A stretch of DNA of 64,000 bases from Magallana gigas (lineage: Eukaryota). The position numbers and the translations under genes were made by a program. The first letter of the stretch is position 1. Each line of letters begins with the position of its first letter. The DNA lies in NCBI RefSeq assembly GCF_963853765.1, contig NC_088861.1:11284001-11348000 (forward strand), given 5' to 3'. The notes below the pieces were generated by a model. It saw nothing but the letters and a program-made list of their open reading frames with translations. It did not search any database and was not told the DNA's origin. Positions 15,733-55,400 of this stretch are shown here, piece after piece.

Positions 15733-17848
15733 AGTCATCCCTCACATTGTGTACATGTACATGTAGTTTCAAAGTTTGGTCTTTCCTTTATTTTTTTTCC
15801 CTGCATGGGTGAAGCTGTTCTGTCTTTTGATTTCCGGATGTATTTATTTCAACTGAACTATATTTGAAATATAAAAACAATACTTGAAACAATGTGGAAT
15901 TTTAAATCATAAAAAAGTGATATCTCGTCTCATAGATAAAATCTAGTTAGTATTCGTAAATGAAAAAAAAGTTTTTTTTAGTATATTTTCTTCTTACATT
16001 ATCGTCCAAAGTTTGAATTCGTGGAAATATACTGTAGTATGATTTCCCCAAGAATTCGTGGAAAATATAAACTTTGCATTTTACCAGAATATTAATTTTA
16101 AATATCAATTTAAGGCAGTTTTTTCCTATCAAATTTTCTAAATTTGTTTAGGGATGTTTGTCCTTAATCCGTCTCATTTTCAACTCGATCCCCGGTTATC
16201 GTGTGATATCAACTTTGAGTTGGACTTAGTTCATCCGATATTACCCCGGGGTAGCTGATGATGTGTCCCTGGTTACTTATTACAAATGTATGAATATTTT
16301 AGAACTTGAGCGGGATGTTCCGTTTCCTTTTTTGGTGTTTCAAAACTGAAACTTGTTTTCCAGGGTGTTTTACTCGAAAATCAGTACTCTGGACAGGGAT
16401 ATTTGATCCGAAAAGTGTAACTAGTATGAAGGGAATTTCAAAAAGTACATAGATTATTCTTAGAATTAATTTCATACCCCCCCCCCCTTCCATCCCAGGA
16501 CTCCCTCCTACATATATATATATATATATATAGGATTCTGAAACTGTAAACTCGAAACGTATAGCTATATGACTGAACAGTTATACGGCATAAAATAGTA
16601 ATACCATATTTTTCCTAGAACAACTTGAGATTATGCTCTTGTCTGATGTTACAAATTAGAGCTAAAAACCCATTTAAAATATGCGATGCATGTTATCTCA
16701 AACCGATTGACACAGTCACAAGTAATAATGCATGTACATTACATAGGCGTTGAAACAAGATCAGGTTTTATGCCATATGTTTATTGATATTTGATCCGTT
16801 CCTCGAAGACTCTAAGCCCCCCCCCCCTTCCCCCTCTATTTTCCGATGCCAAATCCGTCAATCCATTATTAGTCCAGACGGGGGGGGGGGGGGGGGGGGG
16901 GTTTCCAAAGAAATTGTTTTGGTAATTTTATATAATGTAATTTAAAGAAATTTGAATTTTGCAGGGGGGGGGGTCACCCGACCCCTCTCTAGATTAAAAA
17001 TGTACATTGAATACACTTTTTTAACATGACTGAAACGGGGGGGTCAGTGAATTTATTTACTGCAATACACAGAAACACACATAAGATTACCAATTTTAAT
17101 CATTTTTTTTCTTCGGGAACAAATAATTAGGAAATTCACCATCCAACAACCAAGCCCCTGTGCTCATTCCCGGTCGGGAATAATTCATGGTAAGACGCAT
17201 CTAAAAAAATATATATACTGTACAGTATAATAAAAAAAAATTTAAAATGAAAGATTTGATTTCACTACAAGTTAAAACTAAGAATTTGTCTCTCTATATG
17301 AACTTATAACACACAAGTAACATTGTTCAAAGAGAGATAACTTGATTTTCCGGAATAGTTTTTAACTTTGATACAATTTTGATTTTAGGACGCCAAAATG
17401 ATATCCGGTTAAATTTATTGGCAAACTGGGTTGATGTTTACATGATGTTGATTTAGCAAGCTTCAAAATTTCAGTAACTTTGTCTGCATAAACACGTACA
17501 GAATTAGAGATTCTTACTGACTGGTAATTTCTTATTTTTATTTGTTGTAAATAAGCTCAACGTTAGCATTTTGTTTAAAACTATCTGAAATTAACATTTT
17601 CAACTTTTAACCGCAAAAATGGAAAAAGTTTACATGTGAATTCAATATCTATTTCATTCTATAGAGATAACTTTCTTCTTTTATATAAAGCAGAGACATA
17701 AATAACATTATTTATGTCTGAGTCTCTGATTTAAAGGTATTTTTTTTTGGGGGGGGGGGAGGGAGGGGGGTATTTTTTTTCTCTTGAATACATAAATGTA
17801 TTGTATTCTACGTATCCCCTGTACATGTACTGATGTAATACATTTCAG

Positions 17849-17977
17849 GTATGGACGATTCAGTGTTTGAGGAGGAGGGGTTGATATACTACTTGTTACT
17901 GTTGCCAAGTACCCTCATTGTGTTGGTGACCTGTCTTATAATTAAATGGCTTGGTCTCAAATTCTTCCAGCATAACT
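17849..17977 (+). CDS. Putative internal exon encoding a 42-aa single-pass membrane micropeptide (ATG 17851)
   Basis: Acceptor CATTTCAG at 17841-17848 and donor T|GTAAGC at 17978. Peptide MDDSVFEEEGLIYYLLLLPSTLIVLVTCLIIKWLGLKFFQHN has an acidic N-terminus, a ~21-aa hydrophobic stretch and basic residues after it. A candidate upstream non-coding exon ends at donor CATG|GTAAGA (17189/17190). Confidence 0.45.
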
Positions 17978-18027
17978 GTAAGCATAATTTATTTAATGCT
18001 TTGGAGGAATCAAGTGAAGTCGTACTC

Positions 18028-18410
18028 AAACTGACTCGTACCTAAACAGACCCATAATCCATTTGTTCGGTGGTAGACAATGATACTTGGATTATAAATA
18101 TAAAAGATAAGCTGTTTAGGTTAGGTTTTGATATAATAACAATAATTAAGAAATTATGAGATAAATGAATGTAGATTTTTGATAATATTATTAATAAGTC
18201 ATCTCCTATAAGTTTGGCAAAGATCGAGGTTCTTATATCAACATTTGATAGAAAATTTCTGCTAACATTGTACATGCAATCTTAGCTATATTGACAAATC
18301 TATAAAATCTTCTCCCTCTCTGAACTTCTGAAGGCATGCATAATATTATAATTCAAGTTTTTTTTACTCAGATTATTTGATTACAAGTCTGTTTGGGTAC
18401 GAGTCGGTTT
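18028..18410. mobile_element. MITE with 24-bp terminal inverted repeats
   Basis: AAACTGACTCGTACCTAAACAGAC (18028-18051) versus GTCTGTTTGGGTACGAGTCGGTTT (18387-18410), 2 mismatches. Confidence 0.7.
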
Positions 18411-18827
18411 CTTTACAAGTTGACTGTAATTCCTCTGAAGATGTCAATATTAATTTATTTACCATTCTAGCTTGTAGTCCGGATATGGAACACCAGAATT
18501 TGTACAAAACATTAAAGTTTGAAAATGATATACATATACATGTATATTGAATAAAGGCAATTTGAAATGCAATATAGATTTGTTTCCCTTTTTTGTTGCT
18601 TATCTACCCGGTGCTATTTATAATGAATAAGTATTTAATGAATACCTGAAATTCTGACTGAAGTAAAAGATTATGTGCCCATGGTCTCTTTTATCATCAA
18701 TTTTCTATTCTGAGTTGAACAATAGACAGGAAAGGTAAAATTCAAGAGAGTTCATGAATCAGGGTTTCTGCTCAAAATCAATTGATGTACATTTTTTTGT
18801 TTTCTCAATATTATTCTTCAATTACAA

Positions 18828-20234
18828 GTGTATTTAAAAAAATTACTTTTACAGAAACTTGTGATTCCAATACCATTTTTAAAGATGCTGGAAAAAGTCA
18901 CACAGACAGCTCACAAAATATTGAGGACAACATATTCCAGGTTTTACACCAGTGGTAGACCATCTCTGAGTGACCGATGGCAGACAGATAAAAACATCAT
19001 TATGAATACTTTTGCTCGCAGAAAGGTGATATCAGATAGGTACGGGGTTACGAATAAATCAGACGATTGTCCGATCACTCATGTGTCTATGAACCCGCCT
19101 CGTAAATTCCATGTACCGAGAGTGGACAATGAGATATTTCTTCAGAAATACACCAGAGGTATTATCGATCATCAGTATATGACGCTATTGGAACTTCCTA
19201 CAGTCTATTCTCCTCTGAGGGTTGATGTGGATGTTGAGAAAATGGATTCATCTGTTGATGTTGTCACAGAGAAGTTGATAGAGCAAATAATGAGTCTTTA
19301 CGCTGAAGAGAGTCTAAAATATTTGGCTGATCCAACGTCACTTAAAACTCAGGGGCTACTGACTGCTTATGTTATGCAGAGAAAGAAGAATTACATGGTG
19401 GACAGTGAGACTAAAGAAGGTCTGCATGCAATTTTTCATGATGTGGTGTTCCCATCCAATCTACACAATTCGCTGTTCCATATACCCATAGCCGAAGTTG
19501 TAGAAAACATGACACCAGGGGAAGGAAAGTTCAAAATCTTGGTCGACCAAATTGGGAAGAATCCATGGTTTATGCTGGGATCCCAAAAGCATTGTGATCT
19601 CTATCCATATACTGTGGAATATGTTTGGAAGTATGGAGAAAAACTGATGCCATTCACGCTGAATATGAATTCAGAGAGTGAAGTGTTTCATTGGGTATCA
19701 AAGTTTTCTATTCGGCATAAGGAACCTAGTGAATATTGTGTTGAGGCATCAGGTGATCTGAAAAATGAAATTCTGTCTATTGAAGAAAGTGGAGAGGAAG
19801 AACTAAGTGTCCTTAATGCATCTAAATCCAAGGCTTCCAGTCATTTTCAGCCTTATGTCAAAAGTTATTATGGCAAATCAAGGAGACAACAAAAATTTTG
19901 TGATATAACCGTGAATAAGCTGATAATAGATTTGGGAAATCTGTTAGATCTATATGATGTTGAAATTTCAGATACTTATAAATCATGGTCCTCAATTGGG
20001 TTTGCATTGAAAATTTTGTGTGAAAGTTGTGATGAATGTGAAAATGAATTCAAAGAGTTGTGGTTTTCTTTTTCTGAAAAATCAGCTAAATTCAATCCAT
20101 CAGAATGTGAGAAGACCTGGAATTCGTTGGACTCATCCAAAGGGGATGTTCTGTTTGCCAAAAGAATACTACTGAAATATGCAAATGAGTGTGACATCAG
20201 TGCTAAATATAAAACTTTTCTAACTCATCTTTAA
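18828..20234 (+). CDS. Intronless archaeo-eukaryotic primase (AEP) of the large-DNA-virus D5/C962R N-terminal type plus a PriCT-2 domain, with no SF3 helicase. Likely start ATG 18885 or 19002.
   Basis: N-terminal THVSM...KF motif (~19077); motif I SPLRVDVD (DxD at 19224-19232); motif II KEGLH (19413-19427); motif III DQIGKNPWFMLGSQK (~19545). The C-terminus carries the PriCT-2 signature DTYKSWSSIGFAL...WFSFSEKSAKFNPSECEKTWNSL. The frame is open for 468 codons. Confidence 0.85.
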   Translation: MYLKKLLLQKLVIPIPFLKMLEKVTQTAHKILRTTYSRFYTSGRPSLSDRWQTDKNIIMNTFARRKVISDRYGVTNKSDDCPITHVSMNPPRKFHVPRVDNEIFLQKYTRGIIDHQYMTLLELPTVYSPLRVDVDVEKMDSSVDVVTEKLIEQIMSLYAEESLKYLADPTSLKTQGLLTAYVMQRKKNYMVDSETKEGLHAIFHDVVFPSNLHNSLFHIPIAEVVENMTPGEGKFKILVDQIGKNPWFMLGSQKHCDLYPYTVEYVWKYGEKLMPFTLNMNSESEVFHWVSKFSIRHKEPSEYCVEASGDLKNEILSIEESGEEELSVLNASKSKASSHFQPYVKSYYGKSRRQQKFCDITVNKLIIDLGNLLDLYDVEISDTYKSWSSIGFALKILCESCDECENEFKELWFSFSEKSAKFNPSECEKTWNSLDSSKGDVLFAKRILLKYANECDISAKYKTFLTHL

Positions 20235-20240
20235 TTTACT

Positions 20241-20406
20241 TAATTTTGGTATTCTAAGTGTGTCAGTGACATAAACATTTTCCTTTGTAATATTTTTTTG
20301 TCAATAAATATGACCTTGATAAAAACTTTAATTTTCTTAATTTTGGTATTCTAAATGTCAGTGACATGAACATTTTCCTTTGTAATATTTTTCAATCAAT
20401 AAATAA
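20241..20406 (+). repeat. Direct duplication (~70 bp) just after the primase stop, each copy followed by AATAAA
   Basis: TAATTTTGGTATTCTAA.TGTCAGTGACAT.AACATTTTCCTTTGTAATATTTTT...CAATAAATA at 20241-20310 and 20338-20406. Confidence 0.85.
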
Positions 20407-20784
20407 ATCAATCAATTAATAAATAAATTGAATCTATCAATAACCTTGATGCTACATTGTATTTTATTTTAATTAAAAACAATGATACAAAATGTTTAAT
20501 ATGAATTTATAAAAGTGGAAAAGTATAATTTCAGAGGAAAAAAATGAATGATGTGAACTTTTAATGTGACCCAACAGTAAACTCTTGTCAAATAATGAAC
20601 CGAACCGGAAATCAGTAGTGCTGAGCATAAAATGAACCAGCGTCTAGCATTTAGACATGGCTAGATTTGATATCAGCTTTGCGTTTAATGATGGGGACAT
20701 TTGACGCCGAGTTTCAAGCGCTAAGATGACATCGCTTACCTTAGAAAATATGTAAACAAATAACTTCCTCCCCACAGGTAAGGT

Positions 20785-23700: not shown

Positions 23701-26700
23701 CCTTCATGGTGCTTACAGGTAAAAGTATCTTGCAAAAATATATATTCACCCAGCATTTTTGAATGGAAGTTCTTACGAATGATATAAAAAAAAAGTAATA
23801 TCATTCCTTAGAACTTTTGATATATACAGTCCCAAATGCTCTCTCTCTCTCTCTCTCTCTCTTATAAGGCATAAAACTTGTTAAATTAATTAGTCAAGAT
23901 GAAGTTATATCTTGCTTTTGAAACGACTGTAATGATAAACAGGCAAAAATCACCATGACATCAGTGTTCAGTGAATGAGCATTTGTAATTGGTAGAAGGC
24001 TCCTGGCTTGGAATAGGAAAAATTGAAATTGACATATTAGTAATTAAGATACATGTTCGTTAAATTTTATTAATAGCAGTTTTTAGAATATGTTAACTTT
24101 AAAATCAACTTAATAGATATGTATGCATCTGTTTGAACTATTGTATGTTAAGTGACATTTTCTTATAGATTTGGTAATCCAAATGCACTGTTTCTTCTGA
24201 GGAACTCTGAAGCTATTAAAGAAATCCCAGAAGATTTTCAAGACAGATTTGTAGATAAAGAAGTTCTAAAAATGTGCCATTTGAAGGTAGGTACATGTCT
24301 TTAAATAAGGAATAAGGAATCATTCTTTGAGTATTATGAGGTGATAATTTCGGTCGGGGTGTGATCAAATCAAATAAAGTCCGAAGGGCTTTATGATAGA
24401 TTTGATCACACCCCGACTGAAATTATCATCTCATAATATATATTCAAAGAATGATTCCTTATTACTTATATTTATATAATTTTAAGCCATCGTACGATTA
24501 CATATTTAAATATTAATAAGCAAACCCCGCTGGAGCCTCGATTTGGCGTCATTTGTATTATGGGTTATATAGTACAAAATCGATTCGTAGTGTTATCACA
24601 GGCAAAGACAGTGGAAAATGTAAATATATAAATATCATGAACAACACCAGAGAAAATTTCTTTTTAAGATATTTTAATAAAACCTTTAATTAAATACAAT
24701 TGCAACATGCTTTAAATTTATGTAGCTTTTTGTCTTTTCTTAGGAGTTGAAGAAAAAGATAAAATTGAAATTTCCAAACCAGCTGTTTGAATATGATTGT
24801 AAATACAGTGGTCTATCTGAAAAAGCTGGAAGGAAAAGGGTAGGATATTATGATAAAGGCCTCATATATTCTTAAAAATATAAAGAAAAAGCTTAGGATT
24901 TTCAAAATTCGCCGCTGAAATGTTTAATAAGGCACAGCATGAATATAATTAATATTACATCGTGAGATTAATAAATTTTCCATTGTAGGTCATCCTGGAA
25001 GGTCTGGACACCTTTGCTGAGAAAGTATTGACATTTTTTAAAGCAAGAATATCAGAGTTTTATCCAGAGGAAAAAGGAAAAGATACAGAAGTGGACATAG
25101 GTACTGTATATTGAATTAAGCCATGAAGGAAGAAGAACAAACCAGAAATTGTGACAGTCATGAATAATGGTTGTATTTTTATAGATTGCGAAGCCTTAAG
25201 TTTATAAAAGAAATAGGAAAATTCATAATTCATATCTAAAATAAGATATTTTGACAAAATAATTACTACTAAGATTTTTTTTAGATCTTTTGAAGAAATT
25301 GTATGATTTCTATATTCATAATTTAATGTTTTCTTTTTACTGATATTAATAGAATACATTTGACTTTTATTGTTTCAGTACTAAGTTGAAGCATATTAAT
25401 GTGTTGTTTTCAGAAAGCCTAGAACAGAGGAATTTTCTGGAAAGGAAAACCTATCTTGTTATTGGACAGGAGGAATTAATAAATATGTTCTTGGCATACG
25501 CTAAAGGAATAGATCCTGTTGACTTGAAAATAGAGGGTAAGTAATATCAAGTATATAAATGAAATAGTTTTGTTCTTTTTTGGCTTCAAATAACATGCTA
25601 TTGATCATTCTACCTTTTATAATTCTGTGTTTTATATAGTAACTATAATATGAATGCAATAAATTACATAGTTGATTTTTCTTCGAATTATATTTTCATG
25701 TACATTCTCTTTATAGGAGAAAAGTCTGCATTTGTTCGTAAGTATTAGTGCAGTGCAATAAAATCACCCTTTCTTTTTATGTAATAAAAATACAAAAACC
25801 ACTTTTATTAGATAGTATTTACTAGTAATCTAAAGGTAAGAACCTATTGTAGTACACATATTAATAATTTTCATACACGTGCTTCAGCCCCAATTAGGTA
25901 CTACGTACTTGCTAAAATTTTAAGGTTTTTTAACATGGACGTTTTTTCCTGGGGAAAAAAAATCAATGAAGGTTAACTGCCTCTGAAAGAAAGTAAAAAT
26001 ATGAATTTCAAAATGAACACAGTATTCTTGTTGCATTGAATGTGTTCAAATTAAATATTAATATCACAGGGGATCCAGAATTCTGGCAAAATGATGAGGA
26101 CGATAACCTATTGTTGTGCCTGACGGGAGCTGCAGGCCAGGGGAAAACCTCAGTAATGGCAAAGTTTGTGAAGAAGGCTTTACAGGTATTCATTAACTAT
26201 TATAATATAATAAATATAAATATATATATATATAAATATCACCGTTTCCAGTTTACAAAGTGTCTAAATGCATGCATACAGTTTATAAGGAAGTGTGTAC
26301 ACTGCTGTATAAAAAAAAACCGTGTAAAAGTTTTTTTCCCAGTTGTTTATATAAATATAATAGTATATATAAAAGGCACAGCTTCATATGAATTCATAAT
26401 AGTTAAAAATTACAAATTTCATTTAAAAAAGGGGTAAAAATATAGATTAGTTCTCAAAACATTGAACACTGGTAAAAAATAAGTGTTTGTGATCATGTTT
26501 GAAAAATAAGCTGTAACTGAAATAAATTTAACGTTGATTTTAAAAATGAATGAGTGCATAAGTTAAACGTTTTCTTTTTGTTTGTTCATTGTGGTCGGTA
26601 ATAATGGTTTGTGGCTGGTGGCCTTTAATGTTATATAATCCTCCCTCTCCTTCTTTCCCCACCCTCTCCTTTTAAGAGAGTTTGTCAGAGTAGAGTTGAA

Positions 26701-29700
26701 CTAACAGAAACAAACTGACAACGATGACTGCAGCGTGTCCGATGATTTCTGAAATGAATAAAACTCTCTTCCATTTCCCCGGTTTGTCTTCACAACATGG
26801 CCGCATCCTTACAAATAAGACTGTAATAAGCAATACAGCCTTGCATATAGCAAACCAGGCTTTCGCGTATTGTATGAAGGTGAAAGGATCCTTGGCTTTT
26901 AATGCAACGATCAAAGCCATCAGTGTTTGTGGCAGGTCCTCTATCCAAGTCCCAACCGCTGACAGAATTATAAGAATTTCGGCAGCCTTTTCATGCAAGA
27001 GAGTGCCTTCTCTGTTAACGAGAAATTTCGCAATGCTTGCTAAGAATATTAACACCAAAATTAAGATGCCGACGATCGCAAACACTAAAATTGCCTTTTT
27101 CAAATTATCTGCCTTGTTGATGCCTTCTTGAGTTGTATCGAGAATTACGATATAGAAGGCCCAGTCCAGTATTAAGTCTACCAGCAACAAAAAGCAACCG
27201 CCGATGACACCACAACGCGTGAGGCTGCAGAGTTTTGTACACATTTTGATTGGTCTCTTCCTGGCTAAAAAACGTAGCATAAAGAGTACTTATAAAGCAC
27301 TTAGTATATTTGATTAAAAAAAATAATAAAAGAAGAAGAATATCAAATGTACTAAGGATTCATTAAAGTTTGGAGTTGTTATATATTAGCTCCATTGAGT
27401 CCAAAAAATAACACCCTCATGAACCATTAAAGGGTTGATAGTCCCCCAATGTTTGTCCCCATGAATTTTAATGATTCCACAGTACTAGATTGCAAATTAG
27501 CACCAAATTAATTATTATACATTTAATTCATAACTAATTTTTAAATATCAAATGGGAAGATATGCTTTTATTTTTTTTTTTATTAATTTTTTATTATTTG
27601 TCAAGTGCACGCTTGATATTTTTGTAGCATCAATAAAAATTGTAAGATTTTTTTTGCCCCTGTATGTCATTATAAGTCATTAAAGTTAAAATACATTGAG
27701 GGAAACTAGAGTCGGGATGACAATTCTACAATGTAACTACTTTGTCGATTACATTTCAATATTTTCAATTAAAGTTGGTTTTTCCTGGCACTCGATAGTT
27801 TATCTCATGTCTCACAAACATAAAGTTTATCCTTCCGCAATTGTTTAAACTACATAAGGATTTTTTGGAATATTGTGCTCGTTTAGTTTCCTCATTAGCA
27901 TTGATTTAAGCATGTATTGATTTAAGGCGAGTAGCAGTGATTCTACAAGTGATGGCACTTTGCCATGGTAACTTCAACTAGAAAATTTGTAAATTTGATA
28001 TTGTGGAAACAAGCTTAAAGTAGTTTTTATACAAACAGTGGATAAATACATGAGTGTATGATCCCTCTCCGATAACAATAGTTCATTGATAACAATTAAT
28101 GAAAAAAAATCCAAACATGAGTAGTTTGTAAATGTTAAGTTACTTGTTACATCACTATCGAAACTGATACTTCACTAGCTACTGCGAATCAAAGCATTTG
28201 TATATTTTTTGGCTCAGCATTGCAGTTCATAATGCAGTGTTCACTAAAACACATTTAAAAACGTATCAGTTATGACATGCTTCAAAACTTGTTTATTTTG
28301 TTCACGATAGTTATGCTTTTGAACAAGAGTTATTGATTAATTATTTAATTATACCGTATATCTTTTTTATGGATGCAAACATTTACATGCACCTTTGGTT
28401 CCAAAATGAAAATTTGCTTTATAGATGATTTTGCTAAACTATCATCCCACAGAAAAATTCCAGTTGAACAGTTTTAAAATTAAGATTTACAAAATAAATG
28501 TTTGTTATCTTTCAGTTAAATTTTACAACACGGAACCGAAATATAAATGACAGTCACTTGAGTTACTTTAGTAACCATGAAACATATATTACACGTACTT
28601 GCATTATCTATGTTAGTCATAATCATGCTATGTTGAATAATAAAAACTATCTCTATCTTACCTTTCAAGAAGTGGGATTTACGAAATATTGTTATGATTA
28701 ACGATATGGTATACCCACTTTTAGGGATGTTATAAATGAATTTGCACGAAGAATAATGAAGGAATAGGAAACCACAATGAGACTTATATTAGAGTATATA
28801 CGGCATTTCCTTATTTCCCTTTTGGTCTGAGTAGTCATTGACGATATGTGAGTTTTAATTATGTATTAAGTCGTTAGTGACAGTATATGCAGGGATGACA
28901 ATAAGTACCTCAACAAACCTGCTTCCGATATTAGAGACTACGTCAATTAATGGGAACAAAAAAGAATGGCTAATAAATGATAATTTGTGCCAATTTTGTC
29001 TTTCAGTTTTTTAGTCTTTTCGTTTTAGCAACTAGAAGTGGTATATAATTTTTTTCCTGAAATTATTGTGGCGCAAGTGTACCAATAGGTGCGACATTCG
29101 TATTCTATGGACATATTTCTATTTTTGTTAGTAAAAAGGAATTAAACTAACCCACTCTCTTATGATAGAGACTGAATTTTATGTTTTTAACAAGTTAAGT
29201 TGCGGGGTTTTACAAGTTTTTGTTCATTGCATTGACTTTCCTCATTCATTTGGAATTTACCTGAGTTTCGCTTCACGCGAATTTCACGTTAAATTCACCT
29301 GATTTTTCACGCGAAGCTTTCTTTGTCTAAAGGAGGGATTGAATGTCTTTTACCATTTTGTTGGAATCTCGGAGACGAGTCAGCAAACAGACAATTTGCT
29401 TCGTCGGATGACAGAATTTATCAAAGGTGAAAAAATAGGTCAGTACTATTTTTTCCTACATTATTTACTGTAAAAACAATAGTTTTAGGATTCTTTCATT
29501 TTTTTCTTTTTCTTTATTGCAAGTTTTTATTATTTATATAAAAAAGATGTGCCAAAGGAGACGTTCGACCTAAAAAACTTTTACATGAAGATTATGAGAG
29601 AGGAATTTGAAAAACTGCGACAGAACAAAAATCAAATGCTGCTTGTTTTAGATGGAATGGACGAGGTACGATTATAATATATATCTAGGTGACATGTATG

Positions 29701-32624
29701 GTACTTTTAAGACGGATAATCATGATATATATTCATTGATTTTATTTTTTGCTACTGCATATTGACATCTTTAAACTCAAAAATGTTACTTACAAATTAT
29801 TCATACAACTAATATTGACCACATGATATCTCACTAAAAAACCCAGAATTGTTGAGTATGTTAGCTGCAAGAATCTGAAAGACAGAAACTGCTTAGTCAC
29901 ATTTATGTATTTGGAATACTGTATTCAGGGGTAATATTCGCCCTTGTTTTATTTTAACCCTATTCGTCCTTGATTTTATCGGACGAATTTAAGATTGGGT
30001 GAATTCGGATCTCCAATGTCTCATTTTATTTCGCTTTAAACACAACTGTGCCTGGGCAAATTCAAGACGGGGCAAAACTGCATGTTTGCAAGTGTAGAAG
30101 GGCGAAAATTACACGGGACGAAAATGAACCTGTATACAGTGTCTTTAACCATTACTCCTGCTTGTTTTTGAAGTTAAGCAATCGGGATTCATATGAGCAA
30201 TTGAAATGGTTACCGCCTCGTTTACCTGGTAGTGTTCGAGCTGTGGTGGCTACATCTAGTGCGCATCTTCCAACTCTTCACCGGGCAAAGGAGCATGCCT
30301 GCTTCTTCCTGGAGATTCCCTCGTTAAAATTGTCTGTCGCCAAAGAAATACTATCTCAATACCTTATGCTTTATAATAAAGTAAGAATAATATTCTTGCC
30401 TTAAAATTCAAAATTAAAAAAACTATCGTTTTATAAGGCTAACAGTAACTGTTTGTTCGTGCATTCATGACATGCCAAATATTATTTGGCGACGAAAACA
30501 AAGTGTGAAACAAAACTCTTTCTAAAAGCTAACGTAATAACGAGGCTTGTCAATTTTTTTTAAAAAAAAACTCTTTTATCCGGGTTACACATATCTGAGC
30601 AATAGTACATTTTTAATTTGAATTTTTACCTTAGAAACTCGACAAGGCCCAAATGGAGCTCATTTTATCCAAACCCAACTCATTGAATCCACTGTGGCTC
30701 ACGCTTTTAGCAGAACAACTTCGAACTTTCGGGGATTTTAGAACTCTAGATCAACACATCAAAACACTCTCTGATTCTGTAAATGGCTTGTTGGAGTTTA
30801 TTGTGAAGGATCTTGTTCTTAACGATGACACTGGGCAAATGGAAAAGGTGAAACATACTTGTTTTTTTTAACAACACCTCATTTTACATATTGCTAATAA
30901 GATTAATTTTATGATATATTTTTACTGACGGGTTTCAGGCCCTTTGTATCTTGGTTCTAACAAATGGATTACCTGAAATAGAGATGCAGCAGATTTTGGG
31001 CGATATCAATGAGCAAGAGCCTCTTCCTGACCTGTATTGGTCTAAAATTCGGAGGGCTCTCAAACCTTTCATCTACTTTGCTGGAGCTATTCGAGACATC
31101 AGATTCATACATGGAGCCTTTTATGAGGTGATTTAATGTCAAAATGATTTCAACGTGTTTCGAGGGTTTGGACTTTTGACTTATTTTGACCCACTATTTT
31201 TAAAGTTAAGGTGGTATATCTCATTTGAGTGTGTTTTATGCATTCCTTCTGAACAAATTTTAGTTTTTAGCAAACTACATTTATACAAATTATACCATTT
31301 GCTAAGTGTAATTAAAAAACCCACCTCCCCAGACATCTTTGAAAAAGTACTGATTGTATTGGTTTCTTTTATATAGAATGCCGAGATGCTATATCTTAAA
31401 GAGAAAAAGACTCAGATCATGTACCATACCATTATTGTCGATTATCTAATGAACTGGTGTAAAAATGAAACACTTAAACGAACGAGGGTGCCTTACCATT
31501 GCCAAAGAGCTGGATTACCTGACAAGTACGAATCTTAGAATCAATACATATATAAGACTTGGATGTGGAATTGATTTAATATTTGTATTGGAAAAAATAG
31601 AATTATGGTGTAAACTAGACAGAATTTGTACTGATCAGAGGTTATTTTGAGTATCCTTTGTTATAATACAGGTTGGTTGATTTCATGAGACATTCTGAAA
31701 GTGCTTCAGCTCTACCTGATTTTATGAGAAGCCAATTCTTAAAGGTTAGTGTGGTAATTTGTATGCAATTTCATTCAATGTACTGCATGTGCTGGCCAAA
31801 AATGAATAAATTTGATTTGCAATTTTAATTTAGAGTACATATTAAATAAATCATCCAGTATGCCAAGTCAATGTTAGCAATTATTATTACAAAAAATGAA
31901 AACCCACATATTTCAGAGATTGCTTTTTGATTTTTTGTTGTAAGTTTGATATTATGCTTAATATAGTACATGCATTTTCATCTAATATTTGCGTTGATAC
32001 TCGATGAATTTCACCTAGTATGTACCCTCTGTTGACGTTTGTAAAAATCGGTGTATGAATTAAAAACATGTTCCAAGTAAAACTTGTACCCATAGCAATC
32101 TCTCATGACGTTTGATGTAGTAATGTTGTATATTCAAATCTGTGCATGCTGTTTCTCTGTTGGTCCAATTTTAGAAAGCATATCAAATTTTGTAACCAAT
32201 CTCAACATTTGAAACATATGAATCGATATGTTTAATATTAGCTTTCTAATTATTATAGTTTGCCCGCTGTATACAAATAGCAGATCCAGTTTTGCAAGTC
32301 ACTATGCCAGTCATTTTGTGCAGGGGATGCTCCTGTTCATATAGGGGTTTCACAACCAAACATTTCCCGCTTAATAAAGACGCCTGTGTTATTTGTGGTA
32401 CTCATGTCGTCAAAGGACGTTTTTCAGGCGACGCCTATCTTTGCATTAGACACTCTTTTGGTCAAAGTAAGCTCATGGGAAAATGTTGTTTGTGTGAAAT
32501 ACCCGTACGGAAAGACGAAAACGGGAAAGTGGCTGACTTCATGGGCTCCCAGGGAAAGTTGTGCAACTTTTGCTCGTTTGGAGTAGATTCCAAACGTTGT
32601 TCTTACGTAGGCAAAAGAATTTGA
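20785..32624 (+). CDS. 834-aa DUF4062-NACHT (TEP1/NWD1-like STAND NTPase) with a C-terminal PHF5/Rds3-like zinc domain. Exons: 20785-20826, 21569-21760, 22047-22231, 23608-23718, 24169-24286, 24744-24839, 24989-25100, 25414-25536, 26070-26185, 29333-29426, 29547-29665, 30174-30380, 30635-30847, 30939-31127, 31377-31525, 31672-31744, 32259-32624.
   Basis: All 16 introns are GT-AG with consistent phases; total 2505 nt. DUF4062 motif RVFVSSTFTDFFCERE...DLRWG...LLGERYGW; Walker A GAAGQGKT; YHFVG; Walker B LLVLDGMDE; WLP..LP; NPLWL..LAEQLRTFG. Last-exon ligand pattern is C, CxxC, CxxC, CxxH, CxxC, CxxC, C. The first coding exon is the least certain. Confidence 0.88.
21084..21498. mobile_element. 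MITE of the CAGGCACGTAGCATC-terminus family with poly-G/C tracts. Relatives near 42478-42715, ending at ~59768, and 63586-63637.
   Basis: Left end CAGGCACGTAGTATC(G)n; right end ATGCTACGTATGTGCCTG (imperfect inverse). The same termini recur elsewhere in the window. Confidence 0.65.
23839..23862. repeat. (CT)n microsatellite
   Basis: About 12 CT units in an intron. Confidence 0.9.
24311..24628. mobile_element. Non-autonomous foldback element whose first ~150 bp form a long hairpin
   Basis: AATAAGGAATCATTCTTTGAGTATTATGAGGTGATAATTTCGGTCGGGGTGTGATCAAATC ... GATTTGATCACACCCCGACTGAAATTATCATCTCATAATATATATTCAAAGAATGATTCCTTATT (24311-24463). The right boundary is approximate. Confidence 0.75.
26672..27280 (-). 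CDS. 202-aa multi-pass membrane protein with XK-related-like motifs; intronless CDS nested antisense in intron 9 of the NACHT gene
   Basis: About 5 hydrophobic segments; TM1 motif VDLILDWAFY and mid-protein WIEDLPQ recall the D..xDW and E..PQ motifs of XK/XKR-family proteins. A strong polypyrimidine tract plus AG lies just 5' of the ATG on the minus strand (~27300-27345), so the 5' UTR is probably spliced. Confidence 0.8.
   Translation of the reverse strand: MLRFLARKRPIKMCTKLCSLTRCGVIGGCFLLLVDLILDWAFYIVILDTTQEGINKADNLKKAILVFAIVGILILVLIFLASIAKFLVNREGTLLHEKAAEILIILSAVGTWIEDLPQTLMALIVALKAKDPFTFIQYAKAWFAICKAVLLITVLFVRMRPCCEDKPGKWKRVLFISEIIGHAAVIVVSLFLLVQLYSDKLS
29918..30140. mobile_element. Short MITE in intron 11 of the NACHT gene
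   Basis: TIRs ACTGTATTCAGG and CCTGTATACAGT (1 mismatch). It explains the spurious N-terminal extension of ORF 30048-30404. Confidence 0.7.
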
Positions 32625-38831: not shown

Positions 38832-39592
38832 CTAGTAGATACAGTCATCAGCTTTGCAAATCGTACACTTGGGTTCGTTACATGTATAGACCTTCCATCC
38901 AGTGAACACCCAAAGCATGCAGTCGAAACCTGTGACATCAAGAGTCGGCTCATGCGTGGACCACTTTGAGTAGCCTTGTTCTGGTAGGACAGGAACATCT
39001 GATTTGCTGGTAACCCACGTGACCTTTGAGCTGTTTTTCAATCCGCCTAACCAATAAATAGAGCCGGTGCAGGATCCTGTATCTTTTAAGACAAAAAAGA
39101 AATTATTTGTCATAATAATGTTTATTTTACAGTGGTTATCATTATACTATATTTTCTTTTAATAGCCTCACGTTTAGTTTCAACTATCTTGGGTTTAAGA
39201 AGGCTCGATGGTCATGGCTATTTCCAGAGCATTTTAATCTCCCTAAGAAGAAGAGTTCTGTACAAAGATAATAATAGGAAAATGATAAAATTGTAAAGCT
39301 AAACTATTGGATTTTTTTTTATTAAATGTTATTTTATGGCCAAAATTATCATGTCAAAGTTGAAGACAGATCTGGTGGTTAATTTGTTGACCATACACTC
39401 TTCTTAATGGAGTTAATTTTACTTCCAAATGAAGGAGATATTGGTATAAATGTTTACTATATCGGAAATATAAAAATGATGATTATAAAACAAATAACTT
39501 TTCCCAGAAGGAAAACTGTTTATTTGCCTGTTAACTTTAGCTTGTTATCAGTTGGGTTTTATTTAAAAATCATTGTTCGAATGGTCAATATC

Positions 39593-52400: not shown

Positions 52401-55400
52401 TCTTGATATTGAATATTTTCATAATGTTAAAATAGATTTGAATTTAAATGTGAATGTATTTTTAGATGAAGTAGTCATTATATGGAAATTAAGCGACGCC
52501 TCTGTAAATCCAGGAAATCTCTTTCAAGATGAAGATGAGGATAATAAAGAAAACTGGGTGGCTTGCAAAATTTTCAGGCAAGACTCAAAGCAATAAAATA
52601 ATAGTAGCAACCAGCTCCTATCGGATTTCCAACCCGGTTTTGAAATGCTTACATTTTCAAAAGTGTCATAATGGTCAATGAGTTTACTGGTTCCATAAAG
52701 ATACTGTGATTGAAATCATCAAAGCAGTTTTCAAGTTCATAAATATTTGTATGTTAGTATCAAAGATTAACAATTCTTAATTCAAGAACAGAATGAAAAT
52801 TCAGATCTTGACCTTTGAGCTCCTGAACAATGAGAACATTTATTTTCGGTTGTAAAAGTGCATTCAGGAAAGATAATCATTGCTAATCTAAATTTCAGTT
52901 TCTGAGTTAGGTAAATGATTGGGTTATCTCTCTTTCACTCATTGCAGAGGCCACTTAGCTGAGATATACGACTTGTGTTGGTCTTCAGATGGCAAGAAAT
53001 TGGTGTCAGGCTCCATGGACAACACTGCCATTGTGTGGGATGTTGTCAAAGGTAGCGATTATTAGGCCCAAACAGAATTGATTGTTTGTTTTCTGGTCAG
53101 AAATTTGATATTAATAATGCAACAGGGATGTATTCCTTTTTTATTGCAAGATTTTTAAAGAGGAATTTATAAATCTTTATATACCTATTTGATATGACAA
53201 TAAAATTAATCCTTGCGGCAGCATTTGACCAGATATAGCCATGCTTAAGCCAAAAAAAAAAAAAAAAAATTGATTTATCTGTAAAAAAAAAAAATTCCAT
53301 GTAACATGTACATCTTCAATTCACTCACAGGTTTGCTCAGCAACAATTGCATTTTTTGGGGTATAAAATTAAAATAAAAAAAATAAAGAGATTTGATATA
53401 AAAAATATTTATTGATATGACATTTTCTCCTATATGGGCAATTTATCTGCTACTTCATATTTATTTCACCTTTTAAATATTAAAAAGAATTGCTTAAGGA
53501 ATATAAATTCATCTTTAATAAGACATGGTTTATTAGTTTGAAAATTTTTTGTACCGTATTTATGCTTTACATCAAAAGTTTTATAAAAAAAATATTGTCA
53601 ATTTTTTTTTCTAGAACAAAGGGTTGCTCTGTTCAATGAACATAAAAGTTTTGTACAGGGAGTGGCCATGGACCCCCAGAATGAATATGTTGCCACCATG
53701 AGCACTGACAGGTAAGAGATTAGGATACCTAACCTTCTAGCCTGGTCCTGATAGCCTTTCATACATGCAGGTGTGAATCAAATTTTGCAAATGAAACACC
53801 CCCCCCCCCATATTTTTTCACATCTAAATTCACTCAAATCGCAGAGAGTGTTGTAGGCAGTCTTACTTCCATTTTTAGATCTTGACACAAAATTGCAGAT
53901 TTGATTATCATTTTTAATGTTGAAAAGGAACTGTTTTAATCTCACTGTCAATTAAAATGACATGATTTTGTCTTTAAGCAAAATATTCTTACAACTTCAT
54001 GAGCGTAAAGTTAACAAAAACATTGTGGAATGAATTTATTTTTATTTTTTGTTGTTGTCTTTTACAGGTCATGTAGAATATTCAATGTCTCCAGTAAAAA
54101 CTGTATATACAATGTTTCCAAGATGTCTCTTCCTGTTCCTAAAAACACAGAGGGCACTCCCGAAACGAAGCCAAAGTCTTTCCGCATGTTTCATGACGAC
54201 ACAATGAGGTCGTTTTTCAGACGTTTGTGTTTCTCGCCGGACGGTGAGATTTTAATAGTACCAGCGGGCTGTATGGAGCTAGGAGAGAATAAAATCATCA
54301 ACTCCACTTATCTCATGTCTAGGCATTGTCTAAACAAGTAAGTCTCTATATTCTGTTTTTGATGGAATAAGTAAGTGTCCAAGTGGTGCAGTGGACAATG
54401 CACTCACTTCTCACCACTGGGACCCGAGTTCGATCCCCATGATCAGCAGTGGTTGTATGTGAAAGGGTATGGTGGTTGCCCGCTTGAACACATGGGTTTT
54501 CTCTGGCACTCTGGCTTCCTCCCGCATCAATTACCAGCTTGCACAAACATCCGTTCCAACAAAAGATATAAATTGTAGAACTTGTTTATCAATCGCTGTA
54601 AAATGATAAAGCTCAGTTCAGTTGATGGAATAAGAGATGATTTTTTTTAGAATATTTTCTTTGTATGAGTTGAACCTCTGAAGATGGATAGCAAATTTGA
54701 AAGTTGGAGTTTGTTGAGCAAGTTGGTAGTTACATATTTTCACAAGAAATGTCCAGCGTATTCAATAATGCTAAGCAGAAAATAGTAAAAAAAGCTTGCT
54801 GAACAATTTTAAAGTCATGTTCATATTAATGTATTCAACAATTTAAAGCAAGAAAGAGAGACTTGAAAAATTTTTCTGTGTACATAGGCAGAATGACTTT
54901 ATGGAGTCACTTACAATTGTTTGGTAGATTGAGACATTGAACAAATGTTTACCTGAGGTTTAGGATCAATTATTTTTTTAATTACAGACCAGCAGCCTAC
55001 CTGCCAAGTCCTCAAAAAATAACTGTGTGTGTGAGATGTTGTCCGTGTTATTTCAAACTCAGGAGTAGCACTGAGGACTCGCCAGGTATATTTCTATTGC
55101 AGCAAATATAGTGAAATAATAATCAGAAACAGCTGGGTATGTCAATCTGTAACTGCTGCATCAAAATAGTTTGTGTCATTGTGAACCTACTTACATACTT
55201 TCTGTTCAGTTTTATTTTCATATCAATTAGTCAAAACTTCATATACGGTAATTTCTGTATGTAAAACATTTTCAACAAATTGTTTTTGTTATTGTTAGAT
55301 TATGACTAGACTCTAGGTCTGTCTCTTTTCAACAATTTAGTATGACAGTGGCGTTTTCATGTGAATGTGTATCAATAGTCTTGATTCAATTTAAGATCAC

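Follow-up and report, generated by a model that had tools for sequence, protein, structure and literature searches.

A single-copy giant-virus-type primase gene of oysters, spliced behind PIG-Y in Magallana, with a putative mitochondrial presequence

We analyzed a window of 64,000 nucleotides from Magallana gigas (contig NC_088861.1, positions 11,284,001 to 11,348,000; all coordinates below refer to this whole stretch), which contains a viral-type primase gene on the plus strand. A first-pass annotation had described this gene as an uninterrupted, intronless 468-codon frame beginning at 18828. The frame ending at 20234 is indeed open, being stop-free from 18786 (482 codons stop to stop), and all of the motifs quoted for it (THVSM, VDVD, and KEGLH among them) lie within it. 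The start at 18828, on the other hand, falls within an intron: 18828 to 18854 is intron sequence with the acceptor at 18854/18855, and the first ATG of the frame is at 18885, which gives a protein of 449 amino acids (P0001). Likewise, the coding part of the primase is intronless, whereas the transcript is spliced. The features of the locus are as follows.

17445 to 17523, plus strand: likely upstream non-coding exon, with a GT donor after 17523 and a 3-codon upstream frame
17849 to 17977, plus strand: PIG-Y exon, with acceptor and donor contexts; RNA contigs X16 and X17 span 17848 to 17977 and end at both splice sites
17851 to 17976, plus strand: PIG-Y coding frame, 42 amino acids with one membrane helix (Pfam PF15159); the intron divides its stop codon (17977 plus 18855 to 18856)
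17978 to 18854, plus strand: GT..AG intron of 877 nt from the PIG-Y exon to the primase exon (RNA joint 17977->18855)
18855 to 18884, plus strand: rest of the PIG-Y stop codon and a 28-nt spacer up to the primase ATG
18885 to 20234, plus strand: primase-polymerase coding frame, 449 amino acids (P0001)
18885 to 18968, plus strand: predicted mitochondrial presequence, residues 1 to 28 (5 to 6 K/R, 0 to 2 D/E, amphipathic helix)
19077 to 19628, plus strand: AEP catalytic domain, residues 65 to 248 (D114, D116, H181, and D221; Y242 nearby)
19938 to 20231, plus strand: PriCT-2 domain (Pfam, residues 352 to 417; fold match, residues 339 to 449)
20229 to 20425, plus strand: likely 3' end, with a tandem duplication of roughly 96 bp and AATAAA at 20303, 20402, and 20418

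The tandem duplication (20229 to 20405) starts at the primase stop codon and doubles the AATAAA region. At the other end of the locus, 79 unplaced bases in record 25 of RNA contig X17 account exactly for the depth of 2.42 in the bin from 17404 to 17567, and the M. gigas model P0012 has an exon end identical to that of the inferred upstream exon (17523).

The PIG-Y frame matched PF15159 above the cut-off (E value, 5.5e-8) over profile positions 39 to 69, as a short one-helix form that has the family's conserved C-terminal end, and its exon was the only match to this family detected in the genome. The nearest Atlas cluster is a PIG-Y of 46 amino acids (score, 0.93); a homologue search with the 42-residue frame yielded none (0 of 1 candidate). 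Three of the five differences listed in the frame are synonymous and two are conservative (p = 0.06 for the synonymous excess). Since the primase frame shows such an excess too, this may be an indirect sign that both frames are translated.

The joint 17977->18855 was observed in three of the six RNA runs examined, i.e., in X16 and X17, which come from two studies, and again in X15 with six letters different. It was absent from the DNA-like run X1 and from run X19, and the poly(A) runs X22 and X23, of which about 1% was read, had less than 1x depth on the primase frame and no joint. One RNA contig of 724 nt extends from the whole PIG-Y exon to 19443 (primase codons 1 to 186); a contig across two genes does not imply a single full-length molecule or translation of both frames. 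Up to the donor, the PIG-Y frame contains no stop codon, and therefore spliced PIG-Y reads into the primase exon. Its stop is created across the splice junction, and a further 28 nt separate this stop from the primase ATG, which is in another frame. The PIG-Y ATG context is strong, and one 9-codon frame lies between PIG-Y and the primase. The PIG-Y/primase mRNA is likely bicistronic. A PIG-Y-primase fusion protein is ruled out in this genome by stops in the PIG-Y exon in the primase frame. The public M. gigas model P0012 (522 amino acids) does fuse the PIG-Y exon, in another frame, to the primase; in this window that frame carries stops, and such a reading would mask both PIG-Y and the presequence. 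Annotation may thus hide oyster PIG-Y, as the named locus records call only an uncharacterized long protein.

A message shared by PIG-Y with a second protein has a human counterpart, in which PYURF, a mitochondrial protein, lies upstream of PIGY. At the present locus, by contrast, the 42-residue PIG-Y is the upstream frame and its partner is a virus-derived primase. The bicistronic transcript of human PIGY and PYURF is described in the available text of PMC13303939.

On P0001, Pfam detected AEP_C962R at residues 65 to 248 (E value, 6e-39) and PriCT_2 at residues 352 to 417 (E value, 5e-12), and no further family was matched. A structure model built from 87 sequences reached a mean pLDDT of 85; an earlier model from 8 sequences (pLDDT, 43) was set aside. 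Compared with 48,161 solved chains of the PDB, the model matched the AEP domain of African swine fever virus (ASFV) C962R best (8iqb; Z score, 18.6; rmsd, 3.7; 225 aligned residues), with lower scores for human PrimPol (Z score, 12.2) and mpox E5 (Z score, 11.7). Residues 339 to 449 matched the PriCT-2 region of C962R (8wvz, residues 292 to 397) with a Z score of 5.8, which is weak alone, an rmsd of 3.7, 101 aligned residues, and 25% identity; the accessible text of PMC10516667 places PriCT2 of C962R at residues 285 to 386. Searches of solved structures by sequence found no AEP match with P0001 or the alignment A1, and matched C962R with the wide alignment A2. The Pfam matches and the fold together bear out the earlier assignment to a giant-virus D5/C962R-type AEP with PriCT-2.

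The catalytic residues D114, D116, H181, and D221 are invariant in all 126 aligned proteins, in agreement with the first-pass description of an intact catalytic site. By motif and spacing, they correspond to D97, D99, H157, and D200 of C962R, to which metal and nucleotide binding is ascribed in the part of PMC10516667 available. Y242 lies 21 residues after D221, at the same spacing as Y221 of C962R from D200. The window allele has His at codon 185 (19437 to 19439), four residues past the catalytic His, a position at which the remaining 59 of the 60 full-length oyster members, and at least 90% of the wide alignment, have Pro. H185 is not an assembly error, because run X1 carries the same allele.

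Nucleocytoviricota D5-like primase-helicases, such as ASFV C962R with the order AEP_C962R-PriCT-2-D5_N-SF3, thus share domain order, catalytic residues, and the best fold match with the oyster protein. The latter differs from them in having no D5_N, SF3 helicase, or tail, in carrying 30 to 40 extra N-terminal residues, and in being encoded by a nuclear host gene under apparent purifying selection with about 25% identity to its nearest relatives. The oyster primase stops after PriCT-2, about where D5_N starts in the viral proteins, and it does so in all full-length oyster members. No helicase family was detected by Pfam in P0001, and the helicase is cleanly absent, as had been proposed. Genome-wide, over 564 Mb, D5_N had no match, and a 943-amino-acid viral-type primase-helicase used as query (P0069) matched the primase locus only; these searches score the best candidates only, so that absence is not absolute. 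A word search for longer, helicase-fused relatives, a weak test, found none among 3,708 candidates.

P0001 had one matching place in the 564-Mb genome, and the primase locus was also the sole genome match of PriCT_2. A second AEP_C962R match, on C4, lies inside a LINE-like reverse-transcriptase element with stops and was rejected as a chance match. The gene is not a multicopy transposon-borne primase, being single copy in these searches. Its neighbors are PIG-Y and a DUF4062/NACHT gene. Neither flanking viral genes nor terminal inverted repeats had been noticed previously, and none were found here: no viral family was matched by any of nine other frames scanned, and the 25 longest of 64 inverted pairs between 15000 and 24000 have low-complexity or dispersed-repeat arms only. 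Within this scope, the locus shows none of the marks of an endogenous giant-virus or Polinton-type element, for which viral neighbors, terminal repeats, or multiple copies would be expected. The multi-exon neighbor runs from 21569 to beyond 30400 and contains DUF4062 and NACHT-like pieces whose Pfam matches are weak (below cut-offs); an intronless 205-codon membrane-protein frame lies within it on the opposite strand (26672 to 27289). Elsewhere in the window, matches to PHF5 (32259 to 32624, weak), a C-type lectin (38832 to 39146), and a CAF1B/HIR1 propeller (54015 to 54341) mark ordinary host gene exons, and an exon at 1314 to 2555, previously labelled AHR, had no Pfam match.

Among 2,939 candidates, we found seven clusters at 60 to 97% identity; the oyster orthologues overall have 443 to 470 amino acids and are 59 to 97% identical. 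The named members come from Magallana gigas, M. angulata, Crassostrea virginica, Saccostrea echinata, S. cucullata, and Ostrea edulis, and all of them are annotated as uncharacterized. In S. echinata, P0007 and P0055 occupy two loci on different scaffolds, representing a duplicate or an uncollapsed haplotype. At least 440 amino acids are present in 60 of 62 members, six motifs are retained in all 60, and the length and end of the frame are nearly constant across four oyster genera. The earlier proposal that the host maintains the gene is supported by orthologues in these genera, by its presence in RNA, and by splicing to a host exon; neither loss or pseudogenization of the orthologues nor lack of expression was found.

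Searching 1.84 billion representatives with a profile, we obtained 717 matches. Of the best 150, which were examined, the oyster cluster scored 942 bits, three were short fragments, and the remaining 146 did not exceed 103 bits; no close orthologue from other bivalves was among them. The short fragments (P0063, P0064, and P0066), which are the three best matches outside the oyster cluster and were considered as distant orthologues, were rejected as C-to-T converted, bisulfite-like readings of the oyster gene. In P0063, 88 of 94 residues match the C-to-T converted frame and 68 match the native frame, and CpG was kept at six of seven informative codons with one undecided. Over nine bisulfite-like proteins, CpG was kept at 12 codons, lost at 5, and undecided at 6; four of the five losses are at codon 196, where one listed allele is without CpG. 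The ratio of observed to expected CpG is 0.43 in the primase frame versus 0.68 in the window. We read this as long-standing gene-body methylation of the primase gene, which alone does not separate an active gene from a silenced insert. Bisulfite-converted assemblies can therefore appear as false divergent homologues in a protein library, and they also reveal CpG methylation of a gene.

These self-copies aside, the nearest relatives beyond oysters are viral-type primase-helicases at about 25% identity, and 117 of the 146 relatives among the best 150 matches have at least 800 amino acids. Pfam scans of 32 of the 146 detected AEP_C962R in all 32, and D5_N in 17 of 17 long proteins and 1 of 15 short ones. 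We checked six short relatives. Three of them belong to clusters that also contain a full-length protein and are probably truncated calls; another two are singletons; and the sixth (P0089, 427 amino acids) has a same-length mate, on 14-kb contigs. Furthermore, the Atlas contains viral clusters of 436 to 444 amino acids with AEP and PriCT-2 alone. Helicase-less AEP plus PriCT-2 proteins thus seem to occur among viral-type sequences, and therefore the loss of the helicase may predate the capture. The earlier description of a stand-alone primase stands insofar as no helicase is present; the gene nevertheless rides on the PIG-Y transcript, and its helicase-less form also seems to exist among viral-type sequences. 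Pattern scans for orthologue DNA confirmed none of 61 stretches in viral contigs and none of 134 in metagenome contigs.

We built a midpoint-rooted tree over 316 columns from nine oyster proteins together with the first 90 relatives. The oyster proteins fell into one clade (support, 1.0), which is divided by genus and has a stem length of 1.64, and this clade had no supported sister (sister support, 0.22). Among the read differences listed for the primase frame, 18 are synonymous and 17 non-synonymous (pN/pS, 0.25; p = 6e-5), based on at least 35 differences that mix alleles and perhaps sister species. Selection on the primase looks purifying.

The oyster proteins have 30 to 40 extra N-terminal residues in front of the region that aligns with viral N-termini. 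The first AEP motif is at residue 65 in all nine oyster proteins. Its pattern was found in 129 of the 146 listed relatives, where the median position is 26; 10 of these 129 also have it at residue 60 or beyond. In oysters, residues 1 to 28 contain 5 to 6 K/R, 0 to 2 D/E, and 4 to 8 S/T, with a hydrophobic moment of 0.62 to 0.82 and an R-x-Y/C-S/T-type cleavage motif near residues 19 to 22. These marks match those of a cleaved mitochondrial presequence. In the model, a helix at residues 2 to 18 is followed by a low-confidence stretch at 14 to 25. Across genera, residues 1 to 28 are 36 to 43% identical, compared with 68 to 76% for AEP and 61 to 65% for PriCT-2; their length and charge are retained despite this fast change, and the linker (residues 286 to 351) is as variable as the N-terminus. 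A presequence rule of our own, written after seeing the oyster sequences, accepted all nine oyster proteins and 58 of the 60 full-length members but none of the 146 listed relatives; without its cleavage-motif clause, it accepts 20 of the 146. Judging from these sequence features, the oyster-specific N-terminus is likely a mitochondrial presequence, and the primase is probably located in mitochondria.

Two kinds of known enzyme bear on what such a protein might do. The mitochondrial PRI1 and PRI2 of Trypanosoma brucei are described, in the accessible text of PMC4538821 and PMC10719067, as NCLDV-clade AEPs with PriCT-2 that are related to viral primases and prime mitochondrial DNA. They resemble the oyster protein in being nuclear-encoded, in combining an AEP (RRM) domain with PriCT-2, and in belonging to the NCLDV-herpesvirus clade. 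They differ in coming from a protist with a kinetoplast network and in that their location and essentiality have been experimentally shown. No kinetoplastid protein name occurred among 20 top or sister matches checked, from which we infer a separate capture in oysters. PRI1 and PRI2 may serve as the best working model for the oyster primase, the likeness being presumably convergent.

PrimPol (CCDC111) shares the AEP clade and fold (Z score, 12.2), is partly mitochondrial, and acts in repriming and lesion bypass. It carries a UL52-type zinc finger in place of PriCT-2; PF03121, the family of that finger, was not matched on P0001, in which the C-terminal domain is PriCT-2. Together with the better fold match to the AEP of C962R (Z score, 18.6), this agrees with the earlier statement that the oyster protein differs from PrimPol. 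A separate, intron-containing PrimPol gene is present at about 29.69 Mb (G000:C7, about 29,687,400 to 29,692,600, minus strand; L011 and L016), with two exons that match human PrimPol structures (E values, 2e-9 and 1e-4) and two that carry halves of the UL52 zinc finger. A nuclear PRIM1-like gene is present as well. Judged by its domains, the oyster protein is neither a full D5-type primase-helicase nor PrimPol; it would resemble PRI1 and PRI2 in its working, without implying common descent.

Our main reading, to which we give a probability of roughly 0.5, is that a single-copy giant-virus-type primase is made from the PIG-Y message, imported into mitochondria, and primes or re-primes mitochondrial DNA synthesis there. 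A viral D5-type gene would have been inserted behind the ancestral PIG-Y before the oyster genera split and would have taken over the PIG-Y promoter and last exon. Ribosomes might arrive at its ATG through leaky scanning or by re-initiating once they have translated the 42-codon PIG-Y frame, which would keep the protein at a low but constant level. The cleaved presequence would comprise residues 1 to about 22. In the mitochondrial matrix, the AEP domain would act with two metal ions at D114, D116, and D221, PriCT-2 would hold the template and the first nucleotide, and unwinding would be left to the host's mitochondrial helicase. This helicase would be Twinkle. The oyster primase would add to PrimPol; replacement of PrimPol is ruled out by its presence in the genome. 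For mitochondrial priming as such, we see the chances as evenly balanced. Slightly less probable is the more far-reaching possibility that oysters rebuilt the priming of their mitochondrial DNA with a captured D5-type gene, which lost its helicase, acquired a mitochondrial presequence, and is now expressed from the essential message of PIG-Y as its second frame.

The nearest rival is that the imported enzyme only extends primers, as a gap-filling or lesion-bypass repair polymerase, because C962R has been shown to extend primers. The part of PMC10516667 available describes dNTP primer extension rather than synthesis from scratch, with dNTPs preferred and base-excision or other repair proposed, and it reports weaker activity for AEP alone than for the complete protein and a preference of the authors for repair. 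Besides, PrimPol in the oyster genome could supply priming, and T. brucei PPL2 is an AEP without primase activity. PriCT-2, on the other hand, is retained in oysters (61 to 65% identity across genera) though the C962R-type ring and helicase are gone, and the trypanosome enzymes with AEP and PriCT-2 possess primase activity. We regard a pure repair polymerase as rather unlikely.

We hold it similarly improbable that the protein works in repair or repriming in the nucleus or cytosol and that its basic N-terminal helix serves in DNA binding or arose by chance at the insertion site. Between 4 and 17 of about 390 windows elsewhere in the protein are likewise basic and acid-poor, and in C962R and PrimPol the N-terminal helices adopt an ordered state when a partner or DNA is bound. 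Against this, the extension precedes the virus-aligned part and, while changing fast, has kept its length, charge, and arginine cleavage-type motif in four genera; residues 14 to 25 have low confidence in an otherwise good model, and nuclear PRIM1-like and PrimPol genes already exist in the genome.

Far less probable is an antiviral decoy, i.e., a helicase-less protein that would disable the replication rings of such viruses as have large DNA genomes, as the first-pass annotation had suggested. Oysters do encounter such viruses, and the protein is a catalytic half without helicase whose PriCT2 counterpart belongs to the C962R ring in the accessible text. No support was found for the suggestion. 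The N-terminus is presequence-like and points to mitochondria, and the ring-building and unwinding domains are lacking (D5_N, the other ring domain, is absent). Moreover, the protein shares only about 25% identity with viral-type relatives, its catalytic core is strongly conserved and not fast-changing, and it is encoded by a single-copy gene in a housekeeping-type PIG-Y message.

A further alternative is that the locus, as a neutral relic of a virus or transposon or as a chimera of the assembly, is transcribed passively with the 3' untranslated region of PIG-Y. This would fit the viral-type intronless coding part, the shallow RNA coverage of two poly(A) runs, and the silencing of giant-virus insertions by CpG methylation in an animal relative (described in the available part of PMC11244446), but it is already largely refuted by an open frame of near-equal length and end in four genera at 59 to 97% identity, by the pN/pS of 0.25 among listed differences, by the single copy, by RNA joining a host exon, and by the presence of the window sequence or parts of it in 20 sequencing runs from 8 studies.

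The literature titles and opening lines of abstracts that were searched contained no description of this oyster gene, and five of its database identifiers occurred in no main text searched, with subscription papers and supplements outside the scope of the search. In the available text of PMC4419789, animal mitochondrial DNA priming is attributed to mitochondrial RNA polymerase and/or PrimPol. If mitochondrial priming by the captured enzyme holds true, it would be the first mitochondrial primase of giant-virus origin, other than PrimPol, to be encoded in an animal nucleus and the second independent use of a PIG-Y message to carry a mitochondrial protein. Insertion behind a tiny housekeeping frame would be a simple route of domestication that supplies a foreign gene in one step with a promoter, with splicing, and with expression at a low, steady level. 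The survey PMC4419789 (2015) failed to find a complete pol gamma accessory subunit gene in C. gigas and attributed this to coverage; this gap would be relevant if oyster mitochondrial replication is unusual. The primase can be tested in farmed species with cell and larval tools. Octocoral mtMutS, a giant-virus gene recruited for the upkeep of animal mitochondrial DNA according to the accessible text of PMC8438181, offers a repair parallel for late viral uptake, although it is a mismatch-repair protein encoded in the mitochondrion itself, whereas the product of the nuclear oyster gene would need import. A third, virus-derived primase in one bivalve family would show core machinery absorbing viral parts late in animal evolution.
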